Shown one piece after another: positions 19,592 to 49,216 of a DNA stretch of 64,000 nt. Location: NCBI GenBank assembly GCA_021373255.1, contig JAJFTD010000100.1:24636-88635 (forward strand). The letters run 5' to 3'. Position numbers and translations under genes: made by a program. The stretch comes from a bacterium (GTDB taxonomy: Bacteria > Armatimonadota > UBA5829). Within the stretch, counting starts at the first letter, position 1. Each line of letters begins with the position of its first letter. The notes beneath the pieces were generated by a model. It saw nothing but the letters and a program-made list of their open reading frames with translations, was not told where the DNA came from and ran no database searches.

Positions 19592-19650
19592 ATCGTAGAA
19601 GGCAGGCAGCCGTGTGGGTCAGCCCCAGTCACTATTGGAGCAGCCATAAA

Positions 19651-22005
19651 ATGAATTTCTGGCATGTAGTAAGAGTAGTACAGGCACGGAAGTGGATAAT
19701 AATTGGACTTGTAGCGGCTACGTTTCTCACAATCGTCATCGCTGCTCCAAAACCTCGTGTTGTCTACAATGCATCGGTATACATGTCTCCGACGGAACAG
19801 GTCATGCAGGGTGGAACAACCACCACTGCGGAAGCCGGCAATCAGTCCGCCGCTCCTAATCGCAACGTCATCCTGAGCAACTTGATCATTCTTGCACAGG
19901 GTGGTGAGGTTTACCAAAGAGCGATGGATTTCCTCGCTTTATCTGTCGATGAACAGCGACGGAAAGTTCGGGAGAACATGGGCACTGATCTCCCCAGCTA
20001 CCAGCAGATACCTCGTATAGAGGTAGAAGCTGGGAAGATGCTCACATACCAGGATTGGCAAGAAGTGCTCGAAGTGACTCCTGTGCAGAATCAGACAGTT
20101 GGGGAGACGGGCACAACTACCGATATTATTTGTATTACCGTAAAACTGACCAACGGCACGATTGCGCCATATGTGGCCAACGCAGTAGGTGAAGCGTTCT
20201 CTGAGCTGTATCAGGACAAGAGCCGCGAAGATATTCGAAAGTACTCCAAGTTCCTTCTTGCAAGTGAAAACGAAGCCAAGGACGACCTGAAAAAGGTACA
20301 GCAGCAGATTGCCGCATATCGCAGTGACCACAACATGACCGCTGCCACAGGCGAATCTGACGGCACATTATCGCTACTTACTGCTGCTATGGCTGCAAAG
20401 AGTGAAGCTGATGCTGCTGCCGGTGAGGCACAGGCAGCGCTTAATGATGTAAACGCACAGTTAGCCGCTCAGCCGCTTGTGCGCAGGCAAAAGTTACCTG
20501 CCGAGATGAACCCTGTTGTCAAAAAACTTCAGGAGCAGCTATTAGAGGCTGAGGCGGATTTGAAAGACTTGTCCCAACGCTACAAACCGGCTCATGAGAA
20601 ATACAAAGAAGCTGCGGCAAAGGTTGCATATCTGCAAGGTCAGATAACCAAGAATGGTGCGAATTATTCTCTTCCTGAGATCAACCAGATTCACCAGGAT
20701 CTGCTGAAGAAACACTCCGATGCACAGTATGCCCTTGCTACTACTGTGGCCAGACGGAGCGCTGCCGCCGCCAGTTTGGCGCAGGTTCAGCAGAAGATGA
20801 AGAACATCGCCCAGTCAGAACCGGCGCTTCAGGAACTGCTTACCGAATACTCCCAGGCCGAAGCGCGTTATAAGATGCTTTCGGACAAATACGCCCAGGC
20901 TGTTATAGCGGAAAAGGAGTTCACCCGAACGGGGTCTATACTTCCATTTGATTGGGCACGTGATGGGATTAAGCCGACAGTGGAAGGTCCATCGCGAAAG
21001 ACGCTTCTTGTCTACGGGTTAATATTGTCTCTGATCATTGGTGTAGTTGTGGCTGTGTGGCTTGATTCCATAGATCCCAGGCTGCATGGACCGGGCGATG
21101 TGGAGAAACTTCTCGAATTGCCCATTATCGGGGTCACGCCGCAGTTGCCCGGCAAGAACGGCATGCTGCCCAAGTTAACTCACATCTACCCGCTTTCAGC
21201 AATGGCGGAGTCGTATAAGATCCTTAGAACTAACTTACTATTTGAACTGCGTGATAAGCCGTTCAAAACATTAATGGTCGCCACCGGCCGCCCAGGCCAG
21301 GGCGCTACTACCACCATTTGTAACGTGGCTATCGCTCTTGCTCAGATAGGTAAAAAGATTATACTGATAGACGCCGACATGCGACGCCCCAGCCTGCATA
21401 AGTTCTTTGGCGTCGCTAATGAAGCTGGTCTGAGCACGCTGCTGCGTGGAGATGGCACGCTTACGGATGCCTTCCAGAAAACAGATGTCGAAAACCTGAT
21501 TGTGGTTCCTGCAGGCCCGCAACCGCTGAACCCGTCTGAGCTCCTGGGTTCCGACCGCATGCAGGATCTGGTAAAGCGACTTGAAGAACACTGTGATCTG
21601 GTACTATTTGACTCGCCGAGCACGGTTGTGTTCAGTGATGGGCCTATGCTCGCAAGTTGGGTAGACGCAGTATTAATGGTTGTCTCAGCTAACCAGGCAC
21701 CGAGCGGCACCGAAGTTAAAACACGTGAGCTACTCAAGAAAGCCAGGGCAAACGTGATCGGTGTTGTGGTTAACAAAATGCTGCTCGATGACGTCGACAG
21801 TTGCAGATACTACTCTCATTACTATGCCGATTCGGCTCCGCAGACTCCAGATGCTGCTCTTGAATCGGGCAACGAGCATAATGGTAATGGCTCAGGCAAA
21901 AAGATCGCTCCACCTAAAGCCAAGGCCATACCGGCGACCGCAGAGGCAACCAAGCCGGATGCCGATGCAGAGACTGCCGGTGACGACAATCCTTTCCCTG
22001 ATTGA
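19651..22005 (+). CDS. Polysaccharide co-polymerase (Wzz/GumC-like chain-length determinant) fused to a BY-kinase-like P-loop domain with C-terminal Tyr cluster; Walker A is degenerate
   Basis: Two TM helices flank a long coiled-coil periplasmic region. The ATPase domain has Walker A' IILIDADMRRP and Walker B LVLFDSPS, but Walker A reads GRPGQGATTT, with no Lys. The Tyr cluster is CRYYSHYYAD. Start at the ATG at 19651 (ggag Shine-Dalgarno); the ORF is open from 19612. Confidence 0.8.
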   Translation: MNFWHVVRVVQARKWIIIGLVAATFLTIVIAAPKPRVVYNASVYMSPTEQVMQGGTTTTAEAGNQSAAPNRNVILSNLIILAQGGEVYQRAMDFLALSVDEQRRKVRENMGTDLPSYQQIPRIEVEAGKMLTYQDWQEVLEVTPVQNQTVGETGTTTDIICITVKLTNGTIAPYVANAVGEAFSELYQDKSREDIRKYSKFLLASENEAKDDLKKVQQQIAAYRSDHNMTAATGESDGTLSLLTAAMAAKSEADAAAGEAQAALNDVNAQLAAQPLVRRQKLPAEMNPVVKKLQEQLLEAEADLKDLSQRYKPAHEKYKEAAAKVAYLQGQITKNGANYSLPEINQIHQDLLKKHSDAQYALATTVARRSAAAASLAQVQQKMKNIAQSEPALQELLTEYSQAEARYKMLSDKYAQAVIAEKEFTRTGSILPFDWARDGIKPTVEGPSRKTLLVYGLILSLIIGVVVAVWLDSIDPRLHGPGDVEKLLELPIIGVTPQLPGKNGMLPKLTHIYPLSAMAESYKILRTNLLFELRDKPFKTLMVATGRPGQGATTTICNVAIALAQIGKKIILIDADMRRPSLHKFFGVANEAGLSTLLRGDGTLTDAFQKTDVENLIVVPAGPQPLNPSELLGSDRMQDLVKRLEEHCDLVLFDSPSTVVFSDGPMLASWVDAVLMVVSANQAPSGTEVKTRELLKKARANVIGVVVNKMLLDDVDSCRYYSHYYADSAPQTPDAALESGNEHNGNGSGKKIAPPKAKAIPATAEATKPDADAETAGDDNPFPD

Positions 22006-31760: not shown

Positions 31761-32720
31761 ATGGGTACGGATGGTTCAGGCCTCGTATCAATCATAATAG
31801 TAAATTGGAACACACGAGATATACTGCTGCAGTGTCTCGATAGCGTCTATCGCACTTCAAAAGAGACGTTGTGTGAGGTAATTGTTGTGGATAACGCCTC
31901 TACGGATGGTTCGGCAGATGCTGTTAGCCAGCATTTCCCAGATGTGAGTATTGTTCGGAATGACAAGAACGTAGGGTTTGCTGCTGCCAACAACTTGGCT
32001 ATAAAAGCGGCCAGAGGGGAATACCTGCTGTTCTTGAACCCTGATACAGTGGTATGCGGCGACGCTATAAGTGAGATGCGGGATTTTCTGGCGAAGGACA
32101 AGGAAGTGGGTGCCGTTGGGTGCAGGCTTGCTAATGCAGACGGCTCAACACAGGAGTCCTATTGGTTTAGCTTTCCTTGCCGGCGGTGGTTGCTGGAGAA
32201 GGTAATTTATTGGAATAAGGTCACACAGCGAATTAGTAAGAAATCAAATAAACTGCAGGAGCCATTTCCAGTTGCGCACCTATTGGGTGCCTGCATAATG
32301 TGTCCGGCATCGCTGGTTAAGCAGTTGTCGGGATTTGATGAGTCTTATTTTCTGTATCTTGAGGAGACTGATTTATGTTGGCGGATTAGGGAGGCTGGTT
32401 ATGCAGTTTTCCATTTGCCGGGTGCGTCGGTGATACATTATGGCCAGCAAAGCAGCAACCAGGCTGCTGAATGGGCCAGTCTTGAGTTGTACAGGAATAC
32501 TTACAGGTTCATTCGTGGTCACAGCCGATGGCAGATGGCCTCGCGACTGTTAACGCAGTGGATTATTGCAATGCTTGCTATTGTGAGAGTTTTACTCTGG
32601 ACGGTACGAAGAATAACTGGTGTTGGCAACCCAGATACTGCTAGAAGAATGACTATGGGCTTCTGGCGTCTTTTGCTTGCCGTGCCTGGCTTTGAGCGAG
32701 AGTGTAAGAGGCGTGTGTAA
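31761..32720 (+). CDS. Family 2 glycosyltransferase
   Basis: VSIIIVNWNTRDILLQCLDSV...VVDNASTDGS. Confidence 0.8.
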   Translation: MGTDGSGLVSIIIVNWNTRDILLQCLDSVYRTSKETLCEVIVVDNASTDGSADAVSQHFPDVSIVRNDKNVGFAAANNLAIKAARGEYLLFLNPDTVVCGDAISEMRDFLAKDKEVGAVGCRLANADGSTQESYWFSFPCRRWLLEKVIYWNKVTQRISKKSNKLQEPFPVAHLLGACIMCPASLVKQLSGFDESYFLYLEETDLCWRIREAGYAVFHLPGASVIHYGQQSSNQAAEWASLELYRNTYRFIRGHSRWQMASRLLTQWIIAMLAIVRVLLWTVRRITGVGNPDTARRMTMGFWRLLLAVPGFERECKRRV

Positions 32721-32761
32721 TGGTGCGATGTTTGCATAATCAAGTATTCACTGATGATTAT

Positions 32762-35700
32762 ATGTCATTGCGATTATTGTTGCTTGCAACCATTATGGTA
32801 ATTCTGGCGGTACCCTGTACTGCTGCTCCGTCTGTCAGTGGAATGACTGCGCCTGAGAAGGCGGGGTTGTACGAGAAGTTTGAGATCGCGTTCAATGTAT
32901 CTACTGCAGCCACGCAGCTTTACTGGCCCTATGATACCTCGCCAAATCCCGGTGTGGAAGCTGGTGTGGGTGTCAGCATAGACGGTTTATTCTCGAATGA
33001 TAATTGGCAGACGACAATCGTTCAGCCCGGCTTCTATTACCAGCCCTACTACTCTTATCCCGGAAATCCAAACCAGAAGATAGATGGCGGCACTACATGG
33101 GCTTACCCCTCGGGAAACCCCGGTTGGCGGATTCGATTCGCCCCTAAAGCTACCGGTTCCTGGAAATATAAAATAAGAGTTAAAGACTCCAGTGGAACAA
33201 CAACCAGCAGCGAATACAGTTTTACCGTTGTGCCATCCAGCAACCACGGGTTTGTCGGCGTAAGCCCTAATGATGGAAGATACTTCGAACTGAGCGATGG
33301 CACCTACCTGCCGCTTATTGGAATTACGGACGTGGAATGCACCAAATACTCCCAATTAGCGCAGATGGGTGTTAACTTTGTAAGGTCGTGGTGGCAGAGC
33401 AGCAACACACCTCTTGCACTTTTCGGAGCCGGTGGCCAGGGTGGAGATTGTCAGATATCGAATCTGTGGTATAGCACAGTTGCGGTAAGGCCAGGTCATT
33501 TGGTATCGGCTCAGATTCCGAATGTTACGAGTTGGCAGACGTGTTGGGAAACAATCAATACCTTTGTGCCCGTGAAAAGTAACACGAAATACCGTTTTTC
33601 AGCGTGGGTAAAGACCGTCGGGGTTACTGGTAGTGGCGAATATGGCATTTACCTTTCAGAATATACTTCGATGCGAAAGTCTGCTCCGCTAAATGGCACA
33701 AATGATTGGACTAAAATGACTGTGGATATAGACTCGGGTGATCATATTGCCCTGAGGCTGTTAATCGGGGGGTTCAACGTAACCGGTGGTAATGGTTATT
33801 TATCCGATTGGTCGCTTAAGGAAGATATAGGAAATGGGAATTATGGACCGGAACTGCTTCCACGACCTGATTTGCAGTCTCATACAAATTACTCACAGTT
33901 GATTGCATGGAGCATAGATCACCTGCTGGATGCCGCCTTAGCCAATGGAATATATGTTAGGGCGGTTATTGAAGAAAAGGGAGATAGTTTCTTCTCGCGC
34001 ATTCAATCCGACGGCACATGGGGGGCGCAAAGCGATTCAAATATCTATGCCACCTCCACTCACGCGTGCAGAACCTATCAGCAATATTACTGGCGGTACC
34101 TCATAGCAAGATACGGGTATAGCACTGCGCTTCATAGCTTCGAACTGGTAAATGAGGGCGATCCACATAATACATTCCACCACGACGCAGTTGCAGCCCT
34201 GGGCGATTACGTGCAGAAGAACGATCCGAACAGGCATCTAGTCAGTTCATCCAACTGGCATTCATTCCCACCGGTCATGTGGAAAAATCCCAGCGTAGGC
34301 ACTGCCGATTTACATATGTATATTGGATATCGAATAGCCAGTGGTGGTAATAGGATATGGCCCGGATGGGATGGAGACTGGGCGATGATGAATGATAACA
34401 CTACAATGGGCAATGACTACTCCATCGACACCAGCGTTGCCCATACTGGAAAGAATTCCCTGAAGATTAATGTTCCTCCAATTTCCGGTGATGATGGGAA
34501 TCGTATATCTTTTTCCAATGCATGGTTTAATTGTGGAACGCCGCTTGGCCATCAACTTAAATTCTCAATGTGGGTGAAGGGAGAGAAACTTACTGCTTAT
34601 AATGGTAAGTCATGGATTTCGCCTGCAGGTATACATTTGCAGTTCTCACAGGGTGGAGGAGACTTCGCCGGTTACCCATGGGGTACCGGCACTACTGAGG
34701 CGCCTTGGGGCACGTATGATTGGAAAAAGCTGGAGTTTACAATGACTGTTCCCTCTTCGGTGTTTGAGGGATCAGATGGGCACCTTCCACTTATGATGAT
34801 GGTGCAGCCATTCTCCAGAGCGAATAATTCTGCAACATCCGGGACTGTATGGATCGATGATTTTGTTGTCGAAGATTTAACTACGGGCAAAGTAATAAAC
34901 TACAACGGAAGTTTTGAATACATGGACTCAGAGAGCTATGATGTGGTTGCGTGCCACAGCGCGTATTCCAGGCTCACGGACAGTTATGACCTTGGAAAAC
35001 CCGTCATACGTGGAGAAATCGGATTCTGTTATCCCCAGCGTTTTCCCAGTCCATATAAAGGTTGGACTTGGGAAGGCAGTGACACCATGTCAGGCCAGGA
35101 CCAATTGTTGGTAGACGATACGGACGGAATCTGGTGGAAGAAATGGGTCTGGGCTAATACGGACTGGGGCGGCCTTACGGAAGTATACTGGTGGCCAAAC
35201 TTGCCCATCGCACGTAACTATAAATATGGAAGAGCATATCTTACGTTTATAGCCGGAGAACCCGTTTCAAACGGCAAATATAAGGATTGTCAGGCGCAAG
35301 TGTCCAACGCGGCGCTGAGGGTGCTTGGTCAGAAAGATACCACAAACAACCGTGCTTACCTTTGGATTGATAACGCTCCTTATACGTGGAAGAATGTTGT
35401 TGATAAAGTTGCTATTCCTCAGGCGTCTGGAACGGTCACAGTGAGTGGCTTCAAAGATGGCTCATATCAGGTTGAGTGGTGGGACACAACTACTGGCACG
35501 ATCACACGCACGGACAAAGCTCAATGCACAAATGGTAACGTCGTACTGTCGGTTCAAAACCTGCAATCTGATGTGGCATGCAAAGTGTATCAGGCACCGG
35601 CAGATATCAGCCTTCAGGTCACAGTTCCCATGACTGATGTCTTTCCTGGACAGACCGTAAATATCAGCGTGGCTTTCATTAATAACGGCGAGTCAAGCAG

Positions 35701-35872
35701 CTACAACACATCGGTTAGCACAAAAGTGCCGTCGGAGATGGAGTATGTTCCCGGCAGCGCGGAGGCATCTGGCGGAGTTTGGGATGCCGACACTCAAACC
35801 GTTACTTGGGTGGTAGATCAAATCGACGCGCACCAGTCTGGAACAAGGGCATTTAAGGCTAAAGTAAGATAA
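32762..35872 (+). CDS. Large secreted protein: N-terminal Ig-like region, TIM-barrel glycoside-hydrolase-like core, beta-sandwich (CBM-like) modules, C-terminal DUF11 repeat
   Basis: Signal peptide MSLRLLLLATIMVILAVPCTAAP. FELVNEGDP resembles the GH5 NEP acid/base motif. The C-terminal ~80 aa (VSIDVSPDSQ...NGSTTVTAT) has a DUF11-type pattern. Confidence 0.45.
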   Translation: MSLRLLLLATIMVILAVPCTAAPSVSGMTAPEKAGLYEKFEIAFNVSTAATQLYWPYDTSPNPGVEAGVGVSIDGLFSNDNWQTTIVQPGFYYQPYYSYPGNPNQKIDGGTTWAYPSGNPGWRIRFAPKATGSWKYKIRVKDSSGTTTSSEYSFTVVPSSNHGFVGVSPNDGRYFELSDGTYLPLIGITDVECTKYSQLAQMGVNFVRSWWQSSNTPLALFGAGGQGGDCQISNLWYSTVAVRPGHLVSAQIPNVTSWQTCWETINTFVPVKSNTKYRFSAWVKTVGVTGSGEYGIYLSEYTSMRKSAPLNGTNDWTKMTVDIDSGDHIALRLLIGGFNVTGGNGYLSDWSLKEDIGNGNYGPELLPRPDLQSHTNYSQLIAWSIDHLLDAALANGIYVRAVIEEKGDSFFSRIQSDGTWGAQSDSNIYATSTHACRTYQQYYWRYLIARYGYSTALHSFELVNEGDPHNTFHHDAVAALGDYVQKNDPNRHLVSSSNWHSFPPVMWKNPSVGTADLHMYIGYRIASGGNRIWPGWDGDWAMMNDNTTMGNDYSIDTSVAHTGKNSLKINVPPISGDDGNRISFSNAWFNCGTPLGHQLKFSMWVKGEKLTAYNGKSWISPAGIHLQFSQGGGDFAGYPWGTGTTEAPWGTYDWKKLEFTMTVPSSVFEGSDGHLPLMMMVQPFSRANNSATSGTVWIDDFVVEDLTTGKVINYNGSFEYMDSESYDVVACHSAYSRLTDSYDLGKPVIRGEIGFCYPQRFPSPYKGWTWEGSDTMSGQDQLLVDDTDGIWWKKWVWANTDWGGLTEVYWWPNLPIARNYKYGRAYLTFIAGEPVSNGKYKDCQAQVSNAALRVLGQKDTTNNRAYLWIDNAPYTWKNVVDKVAIPQASGTVTVSGFKDGSYQVEWWDTTTGTITRTDKAQCTNGNVVLSVQNLQSDVACKVYQAPADISLQVTVPMTDVFPGQTVNISVAFINNGESSSYNTSVSTKVPSEMEYVPGSAEASGGVWDADTQTVTWVVDQIDAHQSGTRAFKAKVR

Positions 35873-38468: not shown

Positions 38469-40043
38469 ATGACAAATAAGACTGATAACAAAACCGCACC
38501 AGAATGCTGCAAGAAACACCATGTCTCACGAGCTGATAAACTAAAGCTGCTCTGCGTAGGTGTGCTGTTTATTGCCGTTTATGCGCCGACATTTGTTTAT
38601 CTGTGGAACCGCTGGTTGCATGATTCGCAATACTCATTAGCGTTCCTGGTGCCGTTCGTTTCGGGATATTTTATCTGGAGATTGTGGAAACAAGCCACTT
38701 CAACGCGAGTGGATGCATCACCGTGGGGGCTTGGCCTTATTATTGCAGCGCTGTTGATGCATTTTGTGGGGACTCTTTTGGATGTTGCTGTGATCTCAGG
38801 GATGTCCATACTTGTGTTACTTCTTGGTGTATGTCTACACTTCAGGGGCTCGGGGTTCACGAAAGTTCTATGGTTCCCGTTAGCATATACTGTGTTCATG
38901 GTGCCGATTCCTGAGGGGATCATAGATCTCGTAGGGTTCCCAATGCAGCTATGGGCGAGCATGTCGACAGAAAAGCTGTTGAATTTAATAGGTTTGGAAG
39001 TATTTCGCGAGGGGGTCAGGCTGGTTGTCGGCAGCTTCGACTTCCAAGTGGCAGCGGCGTGCAGCGGCATGAGTTCGCTGGTTGCACTGGTCGGGGTAAC
39101 CGCTGTGTTTGCCTATATGACGAAGCTGCCAGCATGGCTTAAATGGGTGTTGTTTTTCCTCTCGTTACCTATTGCATTGATAGCCAATGTCGTGAGAATA
39201 ACCACAATTGCGCTGGTCGGCTATCGATGGGGCGCTGATGTTGCCATGAATATGTATCACGACTGGTCTAGCCCGATGCTCTTTATGGTGGCGATATTGC
39301 TGCTGGCGCTGATAAGTAGGGGATTTGAATATCTGGCTGGAGCTATTTGCCATAATAAGATGCCGCAGGCAGTAGAGCAGGATTCCGTCTTATCACAAAC
39401 AACAAGGATTCGATCACCCAAATATGCGATAGTTCTCGTGTTGATGGCTGTGATGTGTGCGGCACTATACTGGGTGCGGGAAAAGCCTGCGCAGGTAATC
39501 TTTTCTCCTAACCTGGAGGAATTTCCCTCGGTTGTTCAACAATGGAATGCGACCGAAGTCCCCATTACCCACACTGTTAGAAAGCTGTTGAACGCGGACA
39601 ATGTGCTATCTCGGTTATATATGAAATCCGAATACGGTAACCAGGTGGGCCTGCTGGTGGTTTATCGTAAGTATGGCAGGAGAGACTTTATCCACCGACC
39701 GGAGCTATGCTATCCCGCCGCTGGTTGGCAAATTGTAGAAACCGGCACTGCAACTGTTCCTTATGATGGCAAGAACATCACGGCTACAAAAGTTGTTGCA
39801 GAAAAGAATGGAGCGCGTGAGGTTATTCTCTACTGGTTCACGTCAGGCGACCGTGTAGAGCACAATTTCCTTACCCAACAGTTCAGAATGGCGATGGACA
39901 GGTTCCAATCACAGAGATACGGGTGGGCGTTCATTAGGATCAATAGCCCTGTAATAAGCAGTGACAATGAAACTATGGGAAATATGCGTAGTTTTACGCG
40001 TTCCATCTCTAAACCGCTAACCAATACCCTTAGATCGCCTTAG
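38469..40043 (+). CDS. Exosortase (XrtA-like) fused to a C-terminal EpsI-family domain
   Basis: Eight TM helices. The active-site region AACSGMSSL and the conserved Arg in NVVRITTIALVGYRWG are present. The C-terminal ~200 aa (...LLVVYRKYGRRDFIHRPELCYPAAGWQI...) is an EpsI-type periplasmic domain. Confidence 0.75.
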   Translation: MTNKTDNKTAPECCKKHHVSRADKLKLLCVGVLFIAVYAPTFVYLWNRWLHDSQYSLAFLVPFVSGYFIWRLWKQATSTRVDASPWGLGLIIAALLMHFVGTLLDVAVISGMSILVLLLGVCLHFRGSGFTKVLWFPLAYTVFMVPIPEGIIDLVGFPMQLWASMSTEKLLNLIGLEVFREGVRLVVGSFDFQVAAACSGMSSLVALVGVTAVFAYMTKLPAWLKWVLFFLSLPIALIANVVRITTIALVGYRWGADVAMNMYHDWSSPMLFMVAILLLALISRGFEYLAGAICHNKMPQAVEQDSVLSQTTRIRSPKYAIVLVLMAVMCAALYWVREKPAQVIFSPNLEEFPSVVQQWNATEVPITHTVRKLLNADNVLSRLYMKSEYGNQVGLLVVYRKYGRRDFIHRPELCYPAAGWQIVETGTATVPYDGKNITATKVVAEKNGAREVILYWFTSGDRVEHNFLTQQFRMAMDRFQSQRYGWAFIRINSPVISSDNETMGNMRSFTRSISKPLTNTLRSP

Positions 40044-44271: not shown

Positions 44272-44820
44272 CTATTTCCTGCGGAGCTTGAGCAATCCAC
44301 CCGCCGTGCACAGACCTACAAATCCGAGCATAACTGTTGAGGCTTCCGGCACTACACCGGGCGTTTCAACGCAGTCCCATGTGACTATGTACGAGCTGTC
44401 GCGAGCAATGTGGCTTGCAAGATCAACATCCGGCAGATCAGTCAGGAATCTAAATGTTGCCGTAGTGTTGCTGAGACCACTAAATTCCCACGTTGCATGC
44501 CACTTTGACTCGATTACATCATGGTGTACACCATTGAACTCATAATCCCAATAGTGGCCGGATGTCAGTGAGCCAGAATCCGCACCCTTGGTATCGTCTA
44601 CAACTAGACCCACACTAAACTGGTGGACCCAGTTGTCTCTAGGTAATGTGGGTACGGTGAGCGTATAAATCCATTCCCAATCAGAGCCAACCTGATTGCG
44701 TGTGATTTGCAGAATGCTTGCTGGCAGGGAGCCGCTGCTGGTGTAAGGTCCAAAAGCCAAAGCCGGGAGCCCGATAACCAGAACAGCCAGCATGGCAAAC
44801 ATCGGCGTCCATCTTCTCAT
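44272..44820 (-). CDS. PEP-CTERM sorting-domain protein (exosortase substrate)
   Basis: Signal peptide MRRWTPMFAMLAVLVIGLPALA. The C-terminus is VPEASTVMLGFVGLCTAGGLLKLRRK (VPEAS motif + TM + basic tail). Confidence 0.7.
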   Translation of the reverse strand: MRRWTPMFAMLAVLVIGLPALAFGPYTSSGSLPASILQITRNQVGSDWEWIYTLTVPTLPRDNWVHQFSVGLVVDDTKGADSGSLTSGHYWDYEFNGVHHDVIESKWHATWEFSGLSNTTATFRFLTDLPDVDLASHIARDSSYIVTWDCVETPGVVPEASTVMLGFVGLCTAGGLLKLRRK

Positions 44821-45036
44821 ATCCTCATAATCCTCCATGAGCAACAATCGCGTCCATCGGACAGACTCCAGCCCATCGACCCGACGCAATATCTACAGCA
44901 CAAAATGGTGCTGCTTTCTAGCAATCCCAAGTCAAATCTGGGCCCATTACTGATCAATGGCCACAGCACGTGTATACCCAGCAAGCAGGCATAAAAAACA
45001 GAAATGCTAATCTTGTTTTAATAAAAATAGATTTCT

Positions 45037-45558
45037 CTAGTGCTTACGAATCTTGAGAATACCACCGATAGAGCTAAGCCCAAGGAATCCGAGCATAATA
45101 GTGGAAGCCTCCGGCACTACACCAGGGGTCTCAACTTCCGTCCAAGCGACAGAATACTTACCATCCTTTGCACCCATTGCAGCAATGTCTACACCCTGAA
45201 GGTCCGTAAGGAACCGGAATGTCGCAGTGGTGTTGCTAATGGGTGTGAAGTACCACTCCAAACTTTCACCGTTAATGGTGGGGGTGGAATCCAATGTAGT
45301 TCCTGTCACCTGGAAGCCACTATAATGCGACGCGTCGGTGTTCGCTAAGCCAATCAAAAATATATGGACAGGATTAGCATCAATGTTTTGGACGTTAAGT
45401 GTGTAAATCCATTCCCAGTTGGCACCTTGCTGATTGCGAACAACCGACAGCGTGCTGGCTGGGTTACTTCCAACGCTGGTATATGGCCCAAACGCTAACG
45501 CCGCAGAGCTGATCGAAATCGCTGCAAGAACGATTGTTACAAGCAAAAACCTCTTCAT
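45037..45558 (-). CDS. PEP-CTERM sorting-domain protein, paralog of the preceding gene
   Basis: MKRFLLVTIVLAAISISSAALA signal. The shared core reads LAFGPYTSVGSNPAS...NWEWIYTL. The C-terminus is VPEASTIMLGFLGLSSIGGILKIRKH. Confidence 0.7.
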   Translation of the reverse strand: MKRFLLVTIVLAAISISSAALAFGPYTSVGSNPASTLSVVRNQQGANWEWIYTLNVQNIDANPVHIFLIGLANTDASHYSGFQVTGTTLDSTPTINGESLEWYFTPISNTTATFRFLTDLQGVDIAAMGAKDGKYSVAWTEVETPGVVPEASTIMLGFLGLSSIGGILKIRKH

Positions 45559-46037
45559 ATCCAACCTCATTATGCCGAAGCTAAATTGTAGCAACTCCGG
45601 TTATTACCTACCGAACATATAGATACAATATATCTGAGCGAGCAGACTAAGTCAAGAGATGTAACAAAAACCTAGTATTTATTACAGCCTATAGATTAGC
45701 ATCTCGCGACCAATAATGAAGTCAGTGTGAACAATAGCTGCATGACATCGACATCGTGGCCTAATGGGATGTTTGGGGCTGGGTCTATTGATGCATGTAT
45801 GACCATATCGTGGCGTTGGCATAGAGACGCTGTAAACTACAGTTTTCTGCCTCGTAGATATGCGAGTTTTTACGCTCAAAGGATTAGCTCTACCTTGACT
45901 TTGGGTAGCAAGCATGCTATAAGATGCATGAAGATGCTCATGATTGTTCCACGGAAGGACGGTGTCTTGGTGCATATGACACCGCCTCATCCGCGCCATT
46001 CACAAACGGTGTTGGCGAATGGCGTGGTTGATTTGCT

Positions 46038-46874
46038 ATGTTGAGCTCGTGCATTCAGAGGTGGAACGTGGTCGCCAGAGCTTTAAAACTCCTATTATTC
46101 CTCATTCTGGTTCTTCTGGGATCCAGTGCGGTAGCGCTTGCGTCCGCAATTGGCCAATATAACGCCGTGCCTGAAGCATCCGCAACCATACTCGCCCCAA
46201 TGGGGCTTGCTGCGATTATTGCTGCTGAGAAATGGAGGCGGCGAGTCTGCAGGATGCACCAGGGTGTAGGAGCAGCTTATATTATCCTTAAAAGATTAGG
46301 CGATATTATTATGGCGCTTATTCTACTAATGATCGCATCTCCGGCGTTCGCTTTGTTAGCGCTTCTGGTTCGGCTCGATAGCCCGGGCCCGGTGCTTTTC
46401 AAGAGGCGCGTCATCGGTAAGGATGGCAAGAGCTTTGACATGTTCAAGTTTCGTTCTATGGTTGAGGGAGCTGAGCAGATCTTAGAGCAAGATGAAGAGC
46501 TGAAAAGAAATTATTACGTGAAGTGTAAGCTCCATACAGATCCCAGGGTAACTGGTATCGGCATTCTGTTGCGCAAGACCAGCCTGGACGAGCTTCCTCA
46601 GCTTATCAACATATTAATCGGTAACATGACATTCGTCGGACCAAGGCCTATCGCTGCCGACGAAATAGAAAAATATGGACCCGCAATTGACCGATTCGTT
46701 ACGGTTACACCGGGGATCACTGGCCTGTGGCAGACATCAGGCCGGAGTGAGACTTCATACGATATGAGAGTCAGTATGGATATGACCTATATCGAGAAGC
46801 GGTCAATCTTACTCGATATCTGGATCATCCTCTGCACGGTGCCCGCTGTTTTGCTCAAACGAGGAGCTTGTTAG
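46038..46874 (+). CDS. Priming sugar transferase (polyprenyl-phosphate glycosyl-1-phosphate transferase, WbaP/EpsB C-terminal-domain type) with an in-frame N-terminal signal-peptide + PEP-CTERM-like extension
   Basis: The catalytic domain reads DIIMALILLMIASPAFALLALLVRLDSPGPVLFKRRVIGKDGKSFDMFKFRSM...GPRP. The upstream in-frame 70 aa contains a signal-like segment ALKLLLFLILVLLGSSAVALA, then VPEASATILAPMGLAAIIAAEKWRRR. Alternative starts are a GTG at 46068 and an ATG at 46252. Confidence 0.75.
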   Translation: MLSSCIQRWNVVARALKLLLFLILVLLGSSAVALASAIGQYNAVPEASATILAPMGLAAIIAAEKWRRRVCRMHQGVGAAYIILKRLGDIIMALILLMIASPAFALLALLVRLDSPGPVLFKRRVIGKDGKSFDMFKFRSMVEGAEQILEQDEELKRNYYVKCKLHTDPRVTGIGILLRKTSLDELPQLINILIGNMTFVGPRPIAADEIEKYGPAIDRFVTVTPGITGLWQTSGRSETSYDMRVSMDMTYIEKRSILLDIWIILCTVPAVLLKRGAC

Positions 46875-46927
46875 TGGGCAGTCACCCAACGCCCGCAAGT
46901 CGCATGCGGCGAAAGGAGAAGTTTAAC

Positions 46928-47668
46928 ATGAGAAGGTTTATAATGGGGGCAGTATATGCGATCGCGCTTATCTGCGCGTTTGGTATGTGCTCACAGGCAA
47001 ATGCAGCCCGTTACAAATTAACATTGATCAACACCGATGAACATCCACTGCCGTCAGTAATCGGGACCCTTTGGATTGACAAACTCGGTTCATATCAACG
47101 TGTTTACGCAGGTCCTATTTGGCTAAACGTGCTTGATACGCAAACCAACCAATCCGAGGTAGTTCGAATGCTTTGCGTGGACTTGGCTGCAGAGATCAGT
47201 GTTAACCAGACATGGGAAGCCGATATCAGCTACGCGCGGCCGTCAACAGTAGCATCCGACAGCGCATGGGATAAAGCGGTGTGGATGGCTGTAAACAATT
47301 CTGGATGGTATTCACCCAGCGGTTGGCCTACAGGTGACCCTGCTACACAAGATGCTGCAGTCCAGCTCTCTGTATGGGAAGTAATTGCTGATGGCAGCAC
47401 GAATTTTAGTATGGAAAGCGGATCGTTCAATGTCAGTCCTAATCCGTTTGAGGGCGCGAATAGAGAAGAAGTTTTGCAGATAGCTCAGGGATATTTCAAC
47501 TCAGCTAACCCGCCTCAGGGATATGGAAGCAGCTATGCGTGGTATGATGCGACATCAAGCGGTCAAGACCTGCTGTTCATACCAACGGTGCCGGAAATCC
47601 CTGCTGTTGCGCTTGGCTCGATTGGTCTTAGTTTACTTGCTTGCTGGAGATCTCGCAGAAGGAAATAG
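46928..47668 (+). CDS. Secreted protein with variant PEP-CTERM tail (VPEIP)
   Basis: Signal peptide MRRFIMGAVYAIALICAFGMCSQANA. The C-terminus is VPEIPAVALGSIGLSLLACWRSRRRK. Shine-Dalgarno is aaggaga. Confidence 0.6.
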   Translation: MRRFIMGAVYAIALICAFGMCSQANAARYKLTLINTDEHPLPSVIGTLWIDKLGSYQRVYAGPIWLNVLDTQTNQSEVVRMLCVDLAAEISVNQTWEADISYARPSTVASDSAWDKAVWMAVNNSGWYSPSGWPTGDPATQDAAVQLSVWEVIADGSTNFSMESGSFNVSPNPFEGANREEVLQIAQGYFNSANPPQGYGSSYAWYDATSSGQDLLFIPTVPEIPAVALGSIGLSLLACWRSRRRK

Positions 47669-47801: not shown

Positions 47802-47869
47802 AGTGTGTTATCGAAAGGGAACCGAAGTGGTTGAGGGAATACCCTTGGTTGCTTCGGCTTCATTATTAT

Positions 47870-49216
47870 ATGTTTGAGAGCCTATCCGACAAATTACAAA
47901 ATGTGTTCCAGAAGCTGAGAAGCAGGGGCGGTCTTACCGAACAAGAGGTAAATGACGCGCTTCGTGAGGTAAGGCTTGTTCTGCTCGAAGCTGATGTGAA
48001 CTACAAGGTAGTTAAGGATTTTGTCGGCCGGGTAAAAGAGCGGGCGATCGGCGAGGACATTCTCAAAGGTTTGAACCCCGCTCAGCAGGTTATTAAGATC
48101 GTTAACGAGGAACTGGTCGGGCTCCTCGGTGGCGAACAGGCGAAGCTCAAAGTTTCCGACAGGCCGCCGACTGTAATGATGGTGGCCGGTCTGCACGGCG
48201 CGGGCAAGACCACTAATGTGGCAAAGCTGGCGTTGATGTATAAGAAGCAGGGTAAGCGCCCGCTTCTCGTGGCTGGAGACGTGTATCGACCTGCGGCTAT
48301 TATGCAGCTCAGAACCTTGGGCGAGCAGATTGGCGTGGATGTGTTCGATATCGGCGACAAGCAGGATGCGGTCGCGGTAGCTGGCGCAGCGATGCACCAC
48401 GCACGCTCCAATGGTAATGATTTTGTGCTGATTGACGTCGCTGGACGGCTCCACATCGATGAAGAGATGATGTCTGAGCTGAAGCGACTCAGAAGCTCGA
48501 TAGATGTTACTGAAGTTCTGCTGGTCGTTGATGCTATGACTGGTCAGGACGCGGTGAATGTCGCGCAGCAGTTTAATGAGGCGCTGGAGATCGACGGCGT
48601 CATCATGACGAAGATGGACGGCGACGCCAGAGGTGGCGCCGCTCTTTCCATAAAAGCTGTTACCGGCAAGCCGATCAAACTTATCGGCACCAGCGAAAAG
48701 ATGGACGGGCTGGAACCGTTCTATCCAGACAGAATGGCGTCGCGCATCCTCGGAATGGGGGACGTGTTAAGCCTTATCGAGAAGGCGCAGGAGTCTTTCG
48801 ATGAGGATCAGGCGCGCGCTATGGAGAAAAAGTTCAGGGAGAACAAATTCGACCTGAATGATTATCTGGAACAGATTCAGCAAATGCGAAAGATGGGTCC
48901 GCTCGATCAGATCCTTGGTATGATCCCTGGGCTTGGAAATATGAGCAAGCTCAAAGATGCGAAGATTGATGAGACGGAGTTCAAGCGGGTCGAAGCCATA
49001 CTGCGATCAATGACAAGAGATGAACGTAGTGATCCGACTATTCTGAACGGCAGCCGCAGGCGGCGAATTGCCAACGGCAGCGGCACCAGTGTTCAGGATG
49101 TAAACAGGCTGATGAATCAATTTAGCGAAATGAAGAAGATGATCCGGGTCATGAGTGGCGCGGAAGAGTCTGGGAAGCGGCGTAAGAAAATGCCGAACTT
49201 CCCATTTATGGGATAG
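47870..49216 (+). CDS. ffh: Signal recognition particle protein
   Basis: MFESLSDKLQNVFQKLRSRGGLTEQEV... The GTPase motifs are GLHGAGKTT and DVAGR. The M-domain is Met-rich with an RRRRIANGSG tail. Confidence 0.9.
   Translation: MFESLSDKLQNVFQKLRSRGGLTEQEVNDALREVRLVLLEADVNYKVVKDFVGRVKERAIGEDILKGLNPAQQVIKIVNEELVGLLGGEQAKLKVSDRPPTVMMVAGLHGAGKTTNVAKLALMYKKQGKRPLLVAGDVYRPAAIMQLRTLGEQIGVDVFDIGDKQDAVAVAGAAMHHARSNGNDFVLIDVAGRLHIDEEMMSELKRLRSSIDVTEVLLVVDAMTGQDAVNVAQQFNEALEIDGVIMTKMDGDARGGAALSIKAVTGKPIKLIGTSEKMDGLEPFYPDRMASRILGMGDVLSLIEKAQESFDEDQARAMEKKFRENKFDLNDYLEQIQQMRKMGPLDQILGMIPGLGNMSKLKDAKIDETEFKRVEAILRSMTRDERSDPTILNGSRRRRIANGSGTSVQDVNRLMNQFSEMKKMIRVMSGAEESGKRRKKMPNFPFMG

Follow-up and report, generated by a model that had tools for sequence, protein, structure and literature searches.

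The priming sugar transferase of an exopolysaccharide (EPS) cluster in this Armatimonadota genome carries a signal-peptide-like stretch and a PEP-CTERM-like sorting module fused in frame to its N-terminus, rather than a sorting signal at the tail of a protein. This suggests that the enzyme is physically linked to the exosortase encoded in the same gene cluster, although any interaction with the exosortase, by docking or by cleavage, is inferred. The gene was identified in a 64,000-nucleotide stretch (hereafter, the window) of contig JAJFTD010000100.1 (assembly GCA_021373255.1, positions 24,636 to 88,635). The initial annotation had proposed such a fusion from the sequence alone, and we confirmed it. 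ORF 46038-46874 (+) encodes 278 aa with no internal stop, and at least 114 of 120 homologues carry the same module. All named homologues are Armatimonadota.

To define the layout of the protein, we examined the ORF together with its homologues and an alignment of 43 family sequences (A1). The likely start is GTG 46068 (V11), inferred from a GAGGTG Shine-Dalgarno-like site 5 nt upstream (46058-46063), the absence of such a site at ATG 46038, and the length of the homologues, which are mostly 257-267 aa; this start would give a protein of 268 aa. The signal-peptide-like region (46068-46142, aa 11-35) is VVARALKLLLFLILVLLGSSAVALA, of which aa 13-35 is ARALKLLLFLILVLLGSSAVALA, with A-L-A at positions -3 to -1. 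A35 is at least 90 % conserved. A short variable spacer (46143-46166, aa 36-43, SAIGQYNA) follows and is predicted to be periplasmic. By a crude site-picking rule the spacer is 10 aa or less in 108 of 114 members, but 25-189 aa in six. The module itself (46167-46244, aa 44-69) is VPEASATILAPMGLAAIIAAEKWRRR. It consists of the VPEAS motif (46167-46181, aa 44-48), the hydrophobic transmembrane (TM) stretch ATILAPMGLAAIIAA (46182-46226, aa 49-63) with the family signature L-A-P-x-G, and the basic cluster EKWRRR (46227-46244, aa 64-69), predicted to lie on the cytoplasmic side. P45 and G56 are invariant in A1, and L52, A53, P54 and A62 are at least 90 % conserved. A 15-aa linker (46245-46289, aa 70-84), VCRMHQGVGAAYIIL, contains the conserved GVGxAY and joins the module to the enzyme at KRxxD. 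The internal Met that the initial annotation placed at 46252 after 70 codons is M73 at 46254-46256, preceded by 72 codons, and it is not conserved.

The remainder of the protein (46290-46853, aa 85-272) is a monotopic phosphoglycosyl transferase domain (Bac_transf, PF02397), matched with 197.4 bits against a cutoff of 27 over profile positions 1-178 of 179. Searches against the PDB matched WbaP (E = 4e-46) and PglC (E = 7e-28), with alignments beginning at aa 78-82, and D184-E185 and P202-R203-P204 are invariant in A1. AlphaFold modelled the catalytic domain with pLDDT mostly above 90, whereas the helix predicted over aa 46-74 was of low confidence (pLDDT 43-66) and uninformative about packing. 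The protein did not reach the curated NCBIfam cutoffs of the large EPS priming transferases (TIGR03025, 259.8 vs 295.6; TIGR03022, 258.7 vs 403; TIGR03023, 222 vs 410.8; TIGR03013, 151.5 vs 393.4), and only the C-terminal half of each profile was matched.

To determine if the fusion is conserved, we compared the 120 best homologues, which cover 84-99 % of the query. At least 114 keep the signal-peptide-like stretch, a [VIL]P[ED]xx motif, the TM, the Arg cluster and the linker in frame, and the A1 consensus runs from A.A through VPEAS, LAPxG, ERRRRR and GVGxAY to KR..D. The hydrophobic stretch is 15-16 residues in 110 of 114 parsed members, 4-5 basic residues follow in 112 of 114, and the linker is 15 aa in 105 of 114. 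The motif variants were VPEAS (56), VPEVS (18), VPEAA (8), VPDAS (6), IPEAS (6) and others. Conservation was 0.87 for the motif, 0.71 for the TM, 0.87 for the basic cluster and 0.78 for the catalytic domain, but only 0.29 for the h-region of the signal-peptide-like stretch (0.69 for AxA), as expected for a cleaved signal peptide, and 0.27 for the spacer. Codon differences in the module comprised 152 synonymous against 137 non-synonymous changes at 54-72 % nucleotide identity. These data indicate that selection acts on the motif and not only on hydrophobicity. A degenerate DNA pattern scan of GTDB genomes gave 65 hits, of which 16 were true and 49 were chance, including a recurrent unrelated Planctomycetota protein. 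All 14 complete copies in GTDB genomes were single uninterrupted reading frames, and 12 of them had exactly 235 aa from the motif to the stop. A profile search of 1.84 billion representative proteins with the extension returned only 9 hits, and no other enzyme family was found to carry this module plus linker.

We next asked whether the module is related to genuine PEP-CTERM tails. The Pfam and NCBIfam PEP-CTERM models (PF07589, TIGR02595) gave no hit to the window protein, and only 2 of 43 family members reached E about 0.1 with PF07589. We then built an HMM from 74 independent stand-alone PEP-CTERM tails. This profile scored the window module at 16.0 bits over the full model, in register, and hit 110 of 120 modules at 11.3 bits or more (up to 27 bits). 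Among 1,980 background six-frame ORFs, it hit only 7 true C-terminal PEP-CTERM tails and the 7 transferase ORFs themselves, with the next ORF at 6.7 bits. The minus-strand neighbours of the transferase end in the same VPEAS-type variant as the module: ORF 44272-44889 (-) ends in VVPEASTVMLGFVGLCTAGGLLKLRRK (15.6 bits) and ORF 45037-45594 (-), whose real start is probably ATG 45558, ends in VVPEASTIMLGFLGLSSIGGILKIRKH (19.2 bits). Both reached Pfam PEP-CTERM at E about 1e-3 and 19 bits, just under the 20.7 cutoff. A third PEP-CTERM-type protein with the tail TVPEIPAVALGSIGLSLLACWRSRRRK (12.0 bits) is encoded immediately downstream at 46928-47668 (+); the listed ORF is 46868-47668, but ATG 46928 has AGGAG 9 nt upstream.

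The origin of the module is further illustrated by whole-protein fusions. Four members (P0117, P0118, P0216 and P0296) carry a complete PEP-CTERM protein, comprising a signal peptide and a roughly 185-aa ectodomain, in front of the module and the enzyme, and some members are 446 aa long. The ectodomain belongs to a family of about 80 proteins of mostly 205-260 aa, most of which end in a canonical PEP-CTERM tail (E down to 1e-105). The 75 %-identical stand-alone paralogue P0214 is in the same assembly as the fused gene in locus L043, and P0114 looks like P0118 with the ectodomain deleted. These results support capture of a PEP-CTERM ORF, one of three readings offered by the initial annotation, as the evolutionary origin.

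The transferase gene lies in an exosortase EPS cluster of roughly 27 kb, the first gene of which encodes a tyrosine autokinase / chain-length determinant (19612-22005 (+)). In most relatives the transferase sits directly in front of this gene. An exosortase fused to an EpsI domain (38469-40043 (+), 524 aa) is encoded 6 kb upstream on the same strand. It scored 149.6 bits with TIGR02602 (cutoff 105.6), 67.7 bits with the TIGR04178 signature (cutoff 23) and 91 bits with EpsI (cutoff 42.8), but fell below the XrtW, XrtD and XrtA type-specific cutoffs. Loci L012 and L011 are contiguous, and in one relative the transferase gene lies 19 kb upstream of the exosortase in one co-directional cluster. 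In contrast, many long transferase contigs had no matching entry in a limited list of 93 exosortase homologues, and one subclade (P0077, P0081, P0105) sits outside any EPS cluster, next to a LacI-type regulator. The initial annotation had also noted an AT-rich untranslated region with a stable hairpin upstream of the gene, which was only weakly borne out. The divergent intergenic region (45595-46037) is 443 bp and only mildly AT-rich (GC 0.39-0.48 against 0.50). The hairpin at 45988-46030 on the + strand is real, with an 11-bp stem (45991-46001 with 46017-46027), but the region does not fold better than shuffles (z = -1.34, 20 of 200 shuffles as good). There was no Rfam match, and weak sigma-70-like sites on both strands were at chance level (2 found against 1.1 expected).

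Collectively, these results suggest a single polypeptide with a putative cleavable signal peptide, a spacer of about 8 residues, a PEP-CTERM-derived module, a 15-residue linker and a PglC/WbaP-type transferase. In the predicted topology, the signal peptide inserts the module N-out, such that VPEAS sits at the periplasmic face and the Arg cluster and the enzyme are cytoplasmic. This is the topology of a normal PEP-CTERM anchor with an enzyme hanging from its cytoplasmic end. We propose that the module is the handle by which the exosortase, its presumed partner, recognises the priming transferase, either docking it or cleaving it at the motif. Published models have the exosortase cleaving near PEP and leaving the TM helix in the inner membrane (PMC1569441; PMC7468200), and cleavage here would leave TM + enzyme in the membrane as the leaving group. 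Either way, initiation of the polysaccharide on undecaprenyl phosphate would happen next to the place where PEP-CTERM proteins are processed. Coupling to the exosortase, as the initial annotation also suggested, remains the best functional hypothesis, and we put the probability of this overall reading at roughly 0.55. The module may, however, have drifted away from being an exosortase substrate, since none of the 114 parsed modules has the second Pro of PEP and the TM carries its own LAPxG signature. The motif also does not co-vary with the local PEP-CTERM flavour: the tails read IPEPAT and IPEWPA in L010 and [VLI]PEP in L011 and L080, while the transferases of those genomes have VPEVS or IPEAT. 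The module is its own lineage.

A possible, though less favoured, alternative is that the signal peptide and PEP-CTERM-derived helix have been exapted as an extra N-out membrane anchor or dimerisation helix for a small monotopic transferase, with no remaining interaction with the exosortase. This would be comparable to the N-terminal TM bundle of large WbaP-type enzymes; large transferases of this superfamily normally carry extra N-terminal TM helices, and the WbaP structures match only through their C-terminal part (chain residues 277-527). The absent second Pro, the LAPxG signature, the lack of co-variation and the subclade outside EPS clusters are consistent with this view, as are members P0112 and P0119, which have lost the P-E motif but keep the helix and the enzyme. 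However, a plain anchor does not need an invariant Pro and a near-invariant Glu/Asp at the periplasmic boundary, and does not explain motif conservation that equals or exceeds that of the catalytic domain. VPEAS is used by genuine stand-alone PEP-CTERM proteins in this phylum, namely the two window neighbours, P0239 and P0284, with LPEAS in P0271. Furthermore, fusions that carry a full PEP-CTERM ectodomain make most sense if that domain can still be released.

We also rejected, as very unlikely, the readings in which a small upstream PEP-CTERM ORF or regulatory leader peptide precedes a transferase starting at M73, or in which the upstream frame is untranslated and open by chance. M73 does lie 12 codons before the Pfam domain, as in ordinary small transferases, stand-alone mini sorting-signal proteins exist (TIGR04200), and the 100 %-identical public protein (P0001) is annotated as only 235 aa, starting at GTG = V44. 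Tested against orthologues, however, these readings were not supported: the M73 position is I/V/L in 114 of 120 homologues, no homologue has a stop between the module and the enzyme, the amino-acid sequence is conserved with abundant synonymous change, and PglC already aligns from aa 78, so the linker merges into the enzyme core. The PGAP start at V44 cuts through the invariant motif and is an annotation artefact. An assembly or frameshift artefact is excluded because, although the window comes from a metagenome-assembled genome (P0001 and P0121 are labelled 'MAG: Armatimonadota bacterium') and some related MAGs do show fragmented genes, the same architecture appears in more than 100 protein clusters at 90 % identity from NCBI, ENA, JGI and Logan assemblies and from 16 GTDB species representatives.

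The PEP-CTERM/exosortase system (PMC1569441; PF07589, TIGR02595) has the same tripartite signal, in which a [VIL]PE motif abuts a TM helix of about 15 residues followed by an Arg-rich cluster, preceded by a signal peptide (here a signal-peptide-like stretch) and encoded in an EPS locus with an exosortase. The module described here differs in that it is not C-terminal, with 209 residues following the basic cluster, whereas a median of three residues after the domain was reported previously and atypically placed copies were regarded as probably non-functional (PMC1569441). In addition, the cargo in the window is only about 8 residues and the window motif is P-E-A, although P-E-A does occur in genuine stand-alone tails of this phylum. 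Small PglC-type and large WbaP/WcaJ-type transferases (PDB 8G1N, 8T53) share the catalytic domain with its Asp-Glu dyad and PRP motif, the N-terminal re-entrant helix following KRxxD, and the role, here inferred from homology, of first committed enzyme in a Wzx/Wzy-dependent or ABC-dependent polysaccharide cluster. PglC has nothing in front of the re-entrant helix and WbaP has a four-TM bundle plus a soluble domain, whereas here the add-on is a signal-peptide-like stretch plus a sorting-signal helix, an arrangement for which we found no description in the searchable literature. TIGR03013 (EpsB_2), which NCBIfam associates with XrtA/PEP-CTERM systems, is also a priming transferase encoded in exosortase loci, and its catalytic domain is homologous (profile positions 253-442), but these proteins are about 443 aa of the WbaP-like large type and the N-terminal region is unrelated. 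Mini sorting-signal proteins such as the PExPT-CTERM / XrtJ targets (TIGR04200, 57 aa) have a signal peptide (here a signal-peptide-like stretch) and likewise a very short spacer and a sorting signal with hardly any cargo, and aa 19-68 of the window protein align weakly along positions 5-52 of that 57-position model, but the match is not significant (E = 0.17) and those are stand-alone peptides that end after the basic cluster.

A more speculative reading, which we consider unlikely, is that the transferase is a genuine exosortase substrate in which the enzyme itself is the leaving group. Cutting at VPEAS would split the 446-aa family members into a surface-destined PEP-CTERM protein and a membrane-bound transferase, and would remove only a nonapeptide from the minimal form in the window. 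Because the TM helix that stays in the substrate site of the exosortase is covalently attached to the enzyme that makes Und-PP-sugar, the long-sought acceptor for exosortase transpeptidation could be the lipid-linked glycan primed on the spot. That would mechanistically explain why exosortases live in EPS loci.

PEP-CTERM/exosortase systems are widespread in biofilm-forming and floc-forming environmental bacteria, yet what the exosortase attaches its substrates to, and why it is almost always embedded in exopolysaccharide gene clusters, remain open questions (PMC1569441; PMC7468200; Haft 2023 preprint, 10.1101/2023.06.07.544157). The family described here shows that C-terminal sorting signals can function, or at least persist under selection, in a non-terminal position, which current domain models and gene callers miss. 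By placing the sorting signal on the first enzyme of the polysaccharide pathway, this phylum-wide family represents a natural 'Rosetta-stone' fusion pointing to a physical link between the exosortase and glycan priming.

ORF 46038-46874 on the + strand comprises 278 codons with no stop. The Pfam Bac_transf domain covers aa 85-272 (197 bits), and the solved structures of WbaP and PglC match from aa 78-82 onward (E = 4e-46 and 7e-28). In front of this domain lie a basic and hydrophobic stretch ending in A-L-A (aa 13-35), an 8-residue spacer and the sequence VPEAS-ATILAPMGLAAIIAA-EKWRRR (aa 44-69), followed by a 15-residue linker that contains an internal Met (M73, nt 46254) noted in the initial annotation. 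The two minus-strand neighbours, 44272-44889 and 45037-45594, end in VVPEAST[VI]MLGF.GL...K[LI]R[RK][KH], and both nearly reach the Pfam PEP-CTERM cutoff (19 against 20.7 bits). A third PEP-CTERM-type gene follows the transferase (ORF 46868-47668, probable start ATG 46928). The initial annotation, which had described a PEP-CTERM-like module fused in-frame to the transferase, was therefore accurate apart from small coordinate slips. GTG 46068, preceded by GAGGTG, is inferred to be a more plausible start than ATG 46038, since the downstream gene uses AGGAG in the same way and homologues are mostly 257-267 aa. The identical public protein, P0001, is annotated from GTG 46167 (V44), giving 235 aa instead of about 268, which drops the signal-peptide-like stretch and cuts into the VPEAS motif. 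Protein P0099 is likewise truncated. The architecture is therefore hidden in the public annotation by automated start calling.

To determine if this architecture is conserved, we searched 5.8 billion proteins, which returned thousands of transferases, and listed the best 120. Every one of these that carries a source name is labelled Armatimonadota, and most cover 85-98 % of the query, which includes the extension. The alignment gave the consensus A.A......AVPEASAxVLAPxGIAAVxAAERRRRRLAxxxxGVGxAY..KR..D, with P45 and G56 invariant in the 43-sequence alignment. When all 120 were parsed, 114 had the [VILM]P[ED]xx motif. Of these, the stretch from the motif to the basic cluster was 15-16 residues in 110, there were 4-5 basic residues in 112, and the linker to KRxxD was exactly 15 residues in 105. 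Conservation was 0.87 for the motif, 0.71 for the TM, 0.87 for the basic cluster, 0.59 for the linker, 0.78 for the catalytic domain, 0.29 for the signal-peptide-like region, 0.69 for A-x-A and 0.27 for the spacer. The residue equivalent to M73 was I/V/L in 114 of 120, and there is therefore no conserved internal start. In 14 GTDB genomes the module DNA was only 54-72 % identical to that of the window, differing by 152 synonymous against 137 non-synonymous codon changes. All 14 were uninterrupted reading frames, and 12 had exactly 235 aa from the motif to the stop. The motif, the helix and the Arg cluster are thus under purifying selection within one polypeptide, and these results reject the possibilities that the upstream frame is an untranslated coincidence, a leader peptide or an assembly artefact.

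To examine if the module is related to PEP-CTERM, curated models were first applied. The window protein gave no hit, and only 2 of 43 relatives reached E about 0.1, the main reason being that the second Pro of P-E-P is absent in every parsed module. Two independent lines of evidence nevertheless show that the module is homologous to PEP-CTERM. First, an HMM was built from the tails of 74 stand-alone PEP-CTERM proteins of an unrelated family and searched against 1,980 six-frame ORFs from the window and 12 related loci, together with the 120 N-terminal regions. Everything at 11.3 bits or more was a genuine C-terminal PEP-CTERM tail (7), a transferase ORF (7) or an N-terminal module (110 of 120, up to 27 bits), whereas the next ORF scored 6.7 bits. 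The window module scored 16.0 bits across the whole model, with VPE, the mid-helix Gly and RRR in register. Second, the family members P0117, P0118, P0216 and P0296 (329-446 aa; the last residues of P0216 diverge from the family, so it is likely incomplete) have a roughly 185-residue ectodomain between the signal-peptide-like stretch and the module. This ectodomain, with the signature ...APVWGDFY.KDG...HILRPDT..., belongs to a family of about 80 proteins of mostly 205-260 aa, most of which end in a canonical PEP-CTERM tail. Thirty-four of them carry PF07589, and four are annotated as PEP-CTERM proteins, from Armatimonadetes, Planctomycetaceae, Verrucomicrobiae and an unclassified bacterium. 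One stand-alone paralogue, P0214, is 75 % identical, ends in ...VPEPGTIVAAIALLAPAGITMRRRRS and lies in the same assembly (JANYKG...) as a fused gene (locus L043). P0114 looks like P0118 with the ectodomain deleted, and P0062, P0111 and P0113 have spacers of intermediate length. The module therefore sits exactly where a real PEP-CTERM sits, and the space in front of it can hold anything from 8 to about 190 residues.

The window holds a classic exosortase EPS cluster, with a tyrosine autokinase / chain-length determinant (19612-22005), an ABC exporter, many glycosyltransferases including three TIGR03087-like ones, an exosortase fused to EpsI (38469-40043, + strand; TIGR02602 149.6 bits against 105.6) and a 590-aa GT-C-like membrane protein. 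The exosortase and EpsI form a single 524-aa protein here and in protein P0122 (50 % identical), whereas in most relatives they are two overlapping genes of about 290 and 220 aa (loci L010 and L011). The fused protein passes the general exosortase models but falls below every type-specific cutoff (XrtW, XrtD, XrtA, XrtV), so it may be an undescribed exosortase type. In two relatives a large protein of about 1,030-1,050 aa with a Pfam CLIPPER hit sits directly upstream of the exosortase (L010 6895-9981; L011 6853-9963). The similar-sized ORF of the window (32720-35872, + strand, 1,050 aa) has no NCBIfam match and is separated from the exosortase by a WsfD-like gene and a methyltransferase-like gene; it may be a conserved but uncharacterised component of this Armatimonadota exosortase cluster.

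In most relatives the transferase is the first gene of the cluster, directly in front of the tyrosine kinase, as in loci L001, L006, L007, L009 and L012. This holds in 14 of the 25 locus records examined, a few of which are the same contig represented twice. L012 and L011 overlap by 1,795 identical bases, which places the transferase 19 kb upstream of the exosortase in one co-directional cluster ending with two PEP-CTERM genes and a polysaccharide export gene. In the window, in contrast, the transferase has been relocated about 24 kb to the far end of the cluster, where it sits among three PEP-CTERM genes and next to ffh (47831-49216). One subclade (P0077, P0081 and P0105) is not in an EPS cluster at all. 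The 443-bp gap upstream of the transferase is a divergent intergenic region between a PEP-CTERM gene and the transferase, with a GC content of 0.39-0.48. A hairpin with an 11-bp GC-rich stem (45988-46030, + strand) ends 8 nt before ATG 46038 and 38 nt before GTG 46068. The initial annotation had drawn attention to this region as AT-rich with a stable hairpin, but the region folds no better than shuffled sequence (z = -1.34), it has no Rfam match, and promoter-like sites occur at chance frequency. Relatives also have gaps of 130-410 bp in front of the gene, and we see nothing special here.

To assess the distribution of the module, a degenerate DNA pattern was scanned over one genome per GTDB species, giving 16 true hits. 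Every named one is Armatimonadota/Armatimonadetes, and the rest are unclassified MAGs, one MAG having two copies. The pattern also hit a conserved internal sequence, ...SWNV.FRR[VI]PEA[ML]AV.LAP.G.GLL.VLA..., at about residue 75-100 of proteins in Pirellulales and other Planctomycetota (loci L015, L032, L044, L062, L065 and L075), with reading frames of about 390-410 aa in five of the six loci. No basic cluster follows and the sequence is not terminal, and it was treated as unrelated. A profile of the extension searched against 1.84 billion representative proteins found only this family, one ordinary C-terminal PEP-CTERM tail and one oddity, P0297 (1,152 aa), which is not in the window. P0297 is a single ORF that reads like about five PEP-CTERM proteins in tandem, each unit ending in a [VA]PE[PR]S tail with a TM helix and an Arg cluster, and most being followed directly by a new signal-peptide-like stretch. 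It is either a natural polyprotein with internal PEP-CTERM signals or a run of genes that has lost its stops.

Based on established knowledge of signal peptides, the positive-inside rule and monotopic transferases, we infer that the signal peptide is probably cleaved after A35 and drives N-out insertion of the helix. VPEAS would then lie at the periplasmic face, with the Arg cluster and the enzyme in the cytoplasm. This is precisely the geometry in which an exosortase is thought to meet its substrates, cutting near PEP and leaving the TM helix in the inner membrane (PMC1569441; PMC7468200). AlphaFold was uninformative for the module (pLDDT 43-66). Our preferred reading, to which we assign a probability of roughly 0.55, is that the helix is an exosortase-addressed handle that, whether cleaved or not, brings or keeps the priming enzyme at the exosortase. 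The main alternative, less likely but possible, is that the module has become a plain anchor. This is supported by the universal loss of the second Pro, the private LAPxG signature, the lack of co-variation with local tails, and the family members P0112 and P0119 (272 aa), which have lost the P-E motif (...SYLYTPSGIALLAVLNWKWRKY...) but keep the signal-peptide-like stretch, the helix with its Gly and the enzyme.

Haft et al. 2006 (PMC1569441) state that PEP-CTERM lies 'virtually without exception' at the C-terminus, and suspected that atypically placed copies are non-functional. We found no description of this fusion in the open-access literature searched, and NCBIfam has no model for it. Both the sorting signal and the enzyme are known, whereas their arrangement is new, conserved and apparently functional, and a functional link between the priming transferase and the exosortase, although unproven, is plausible.
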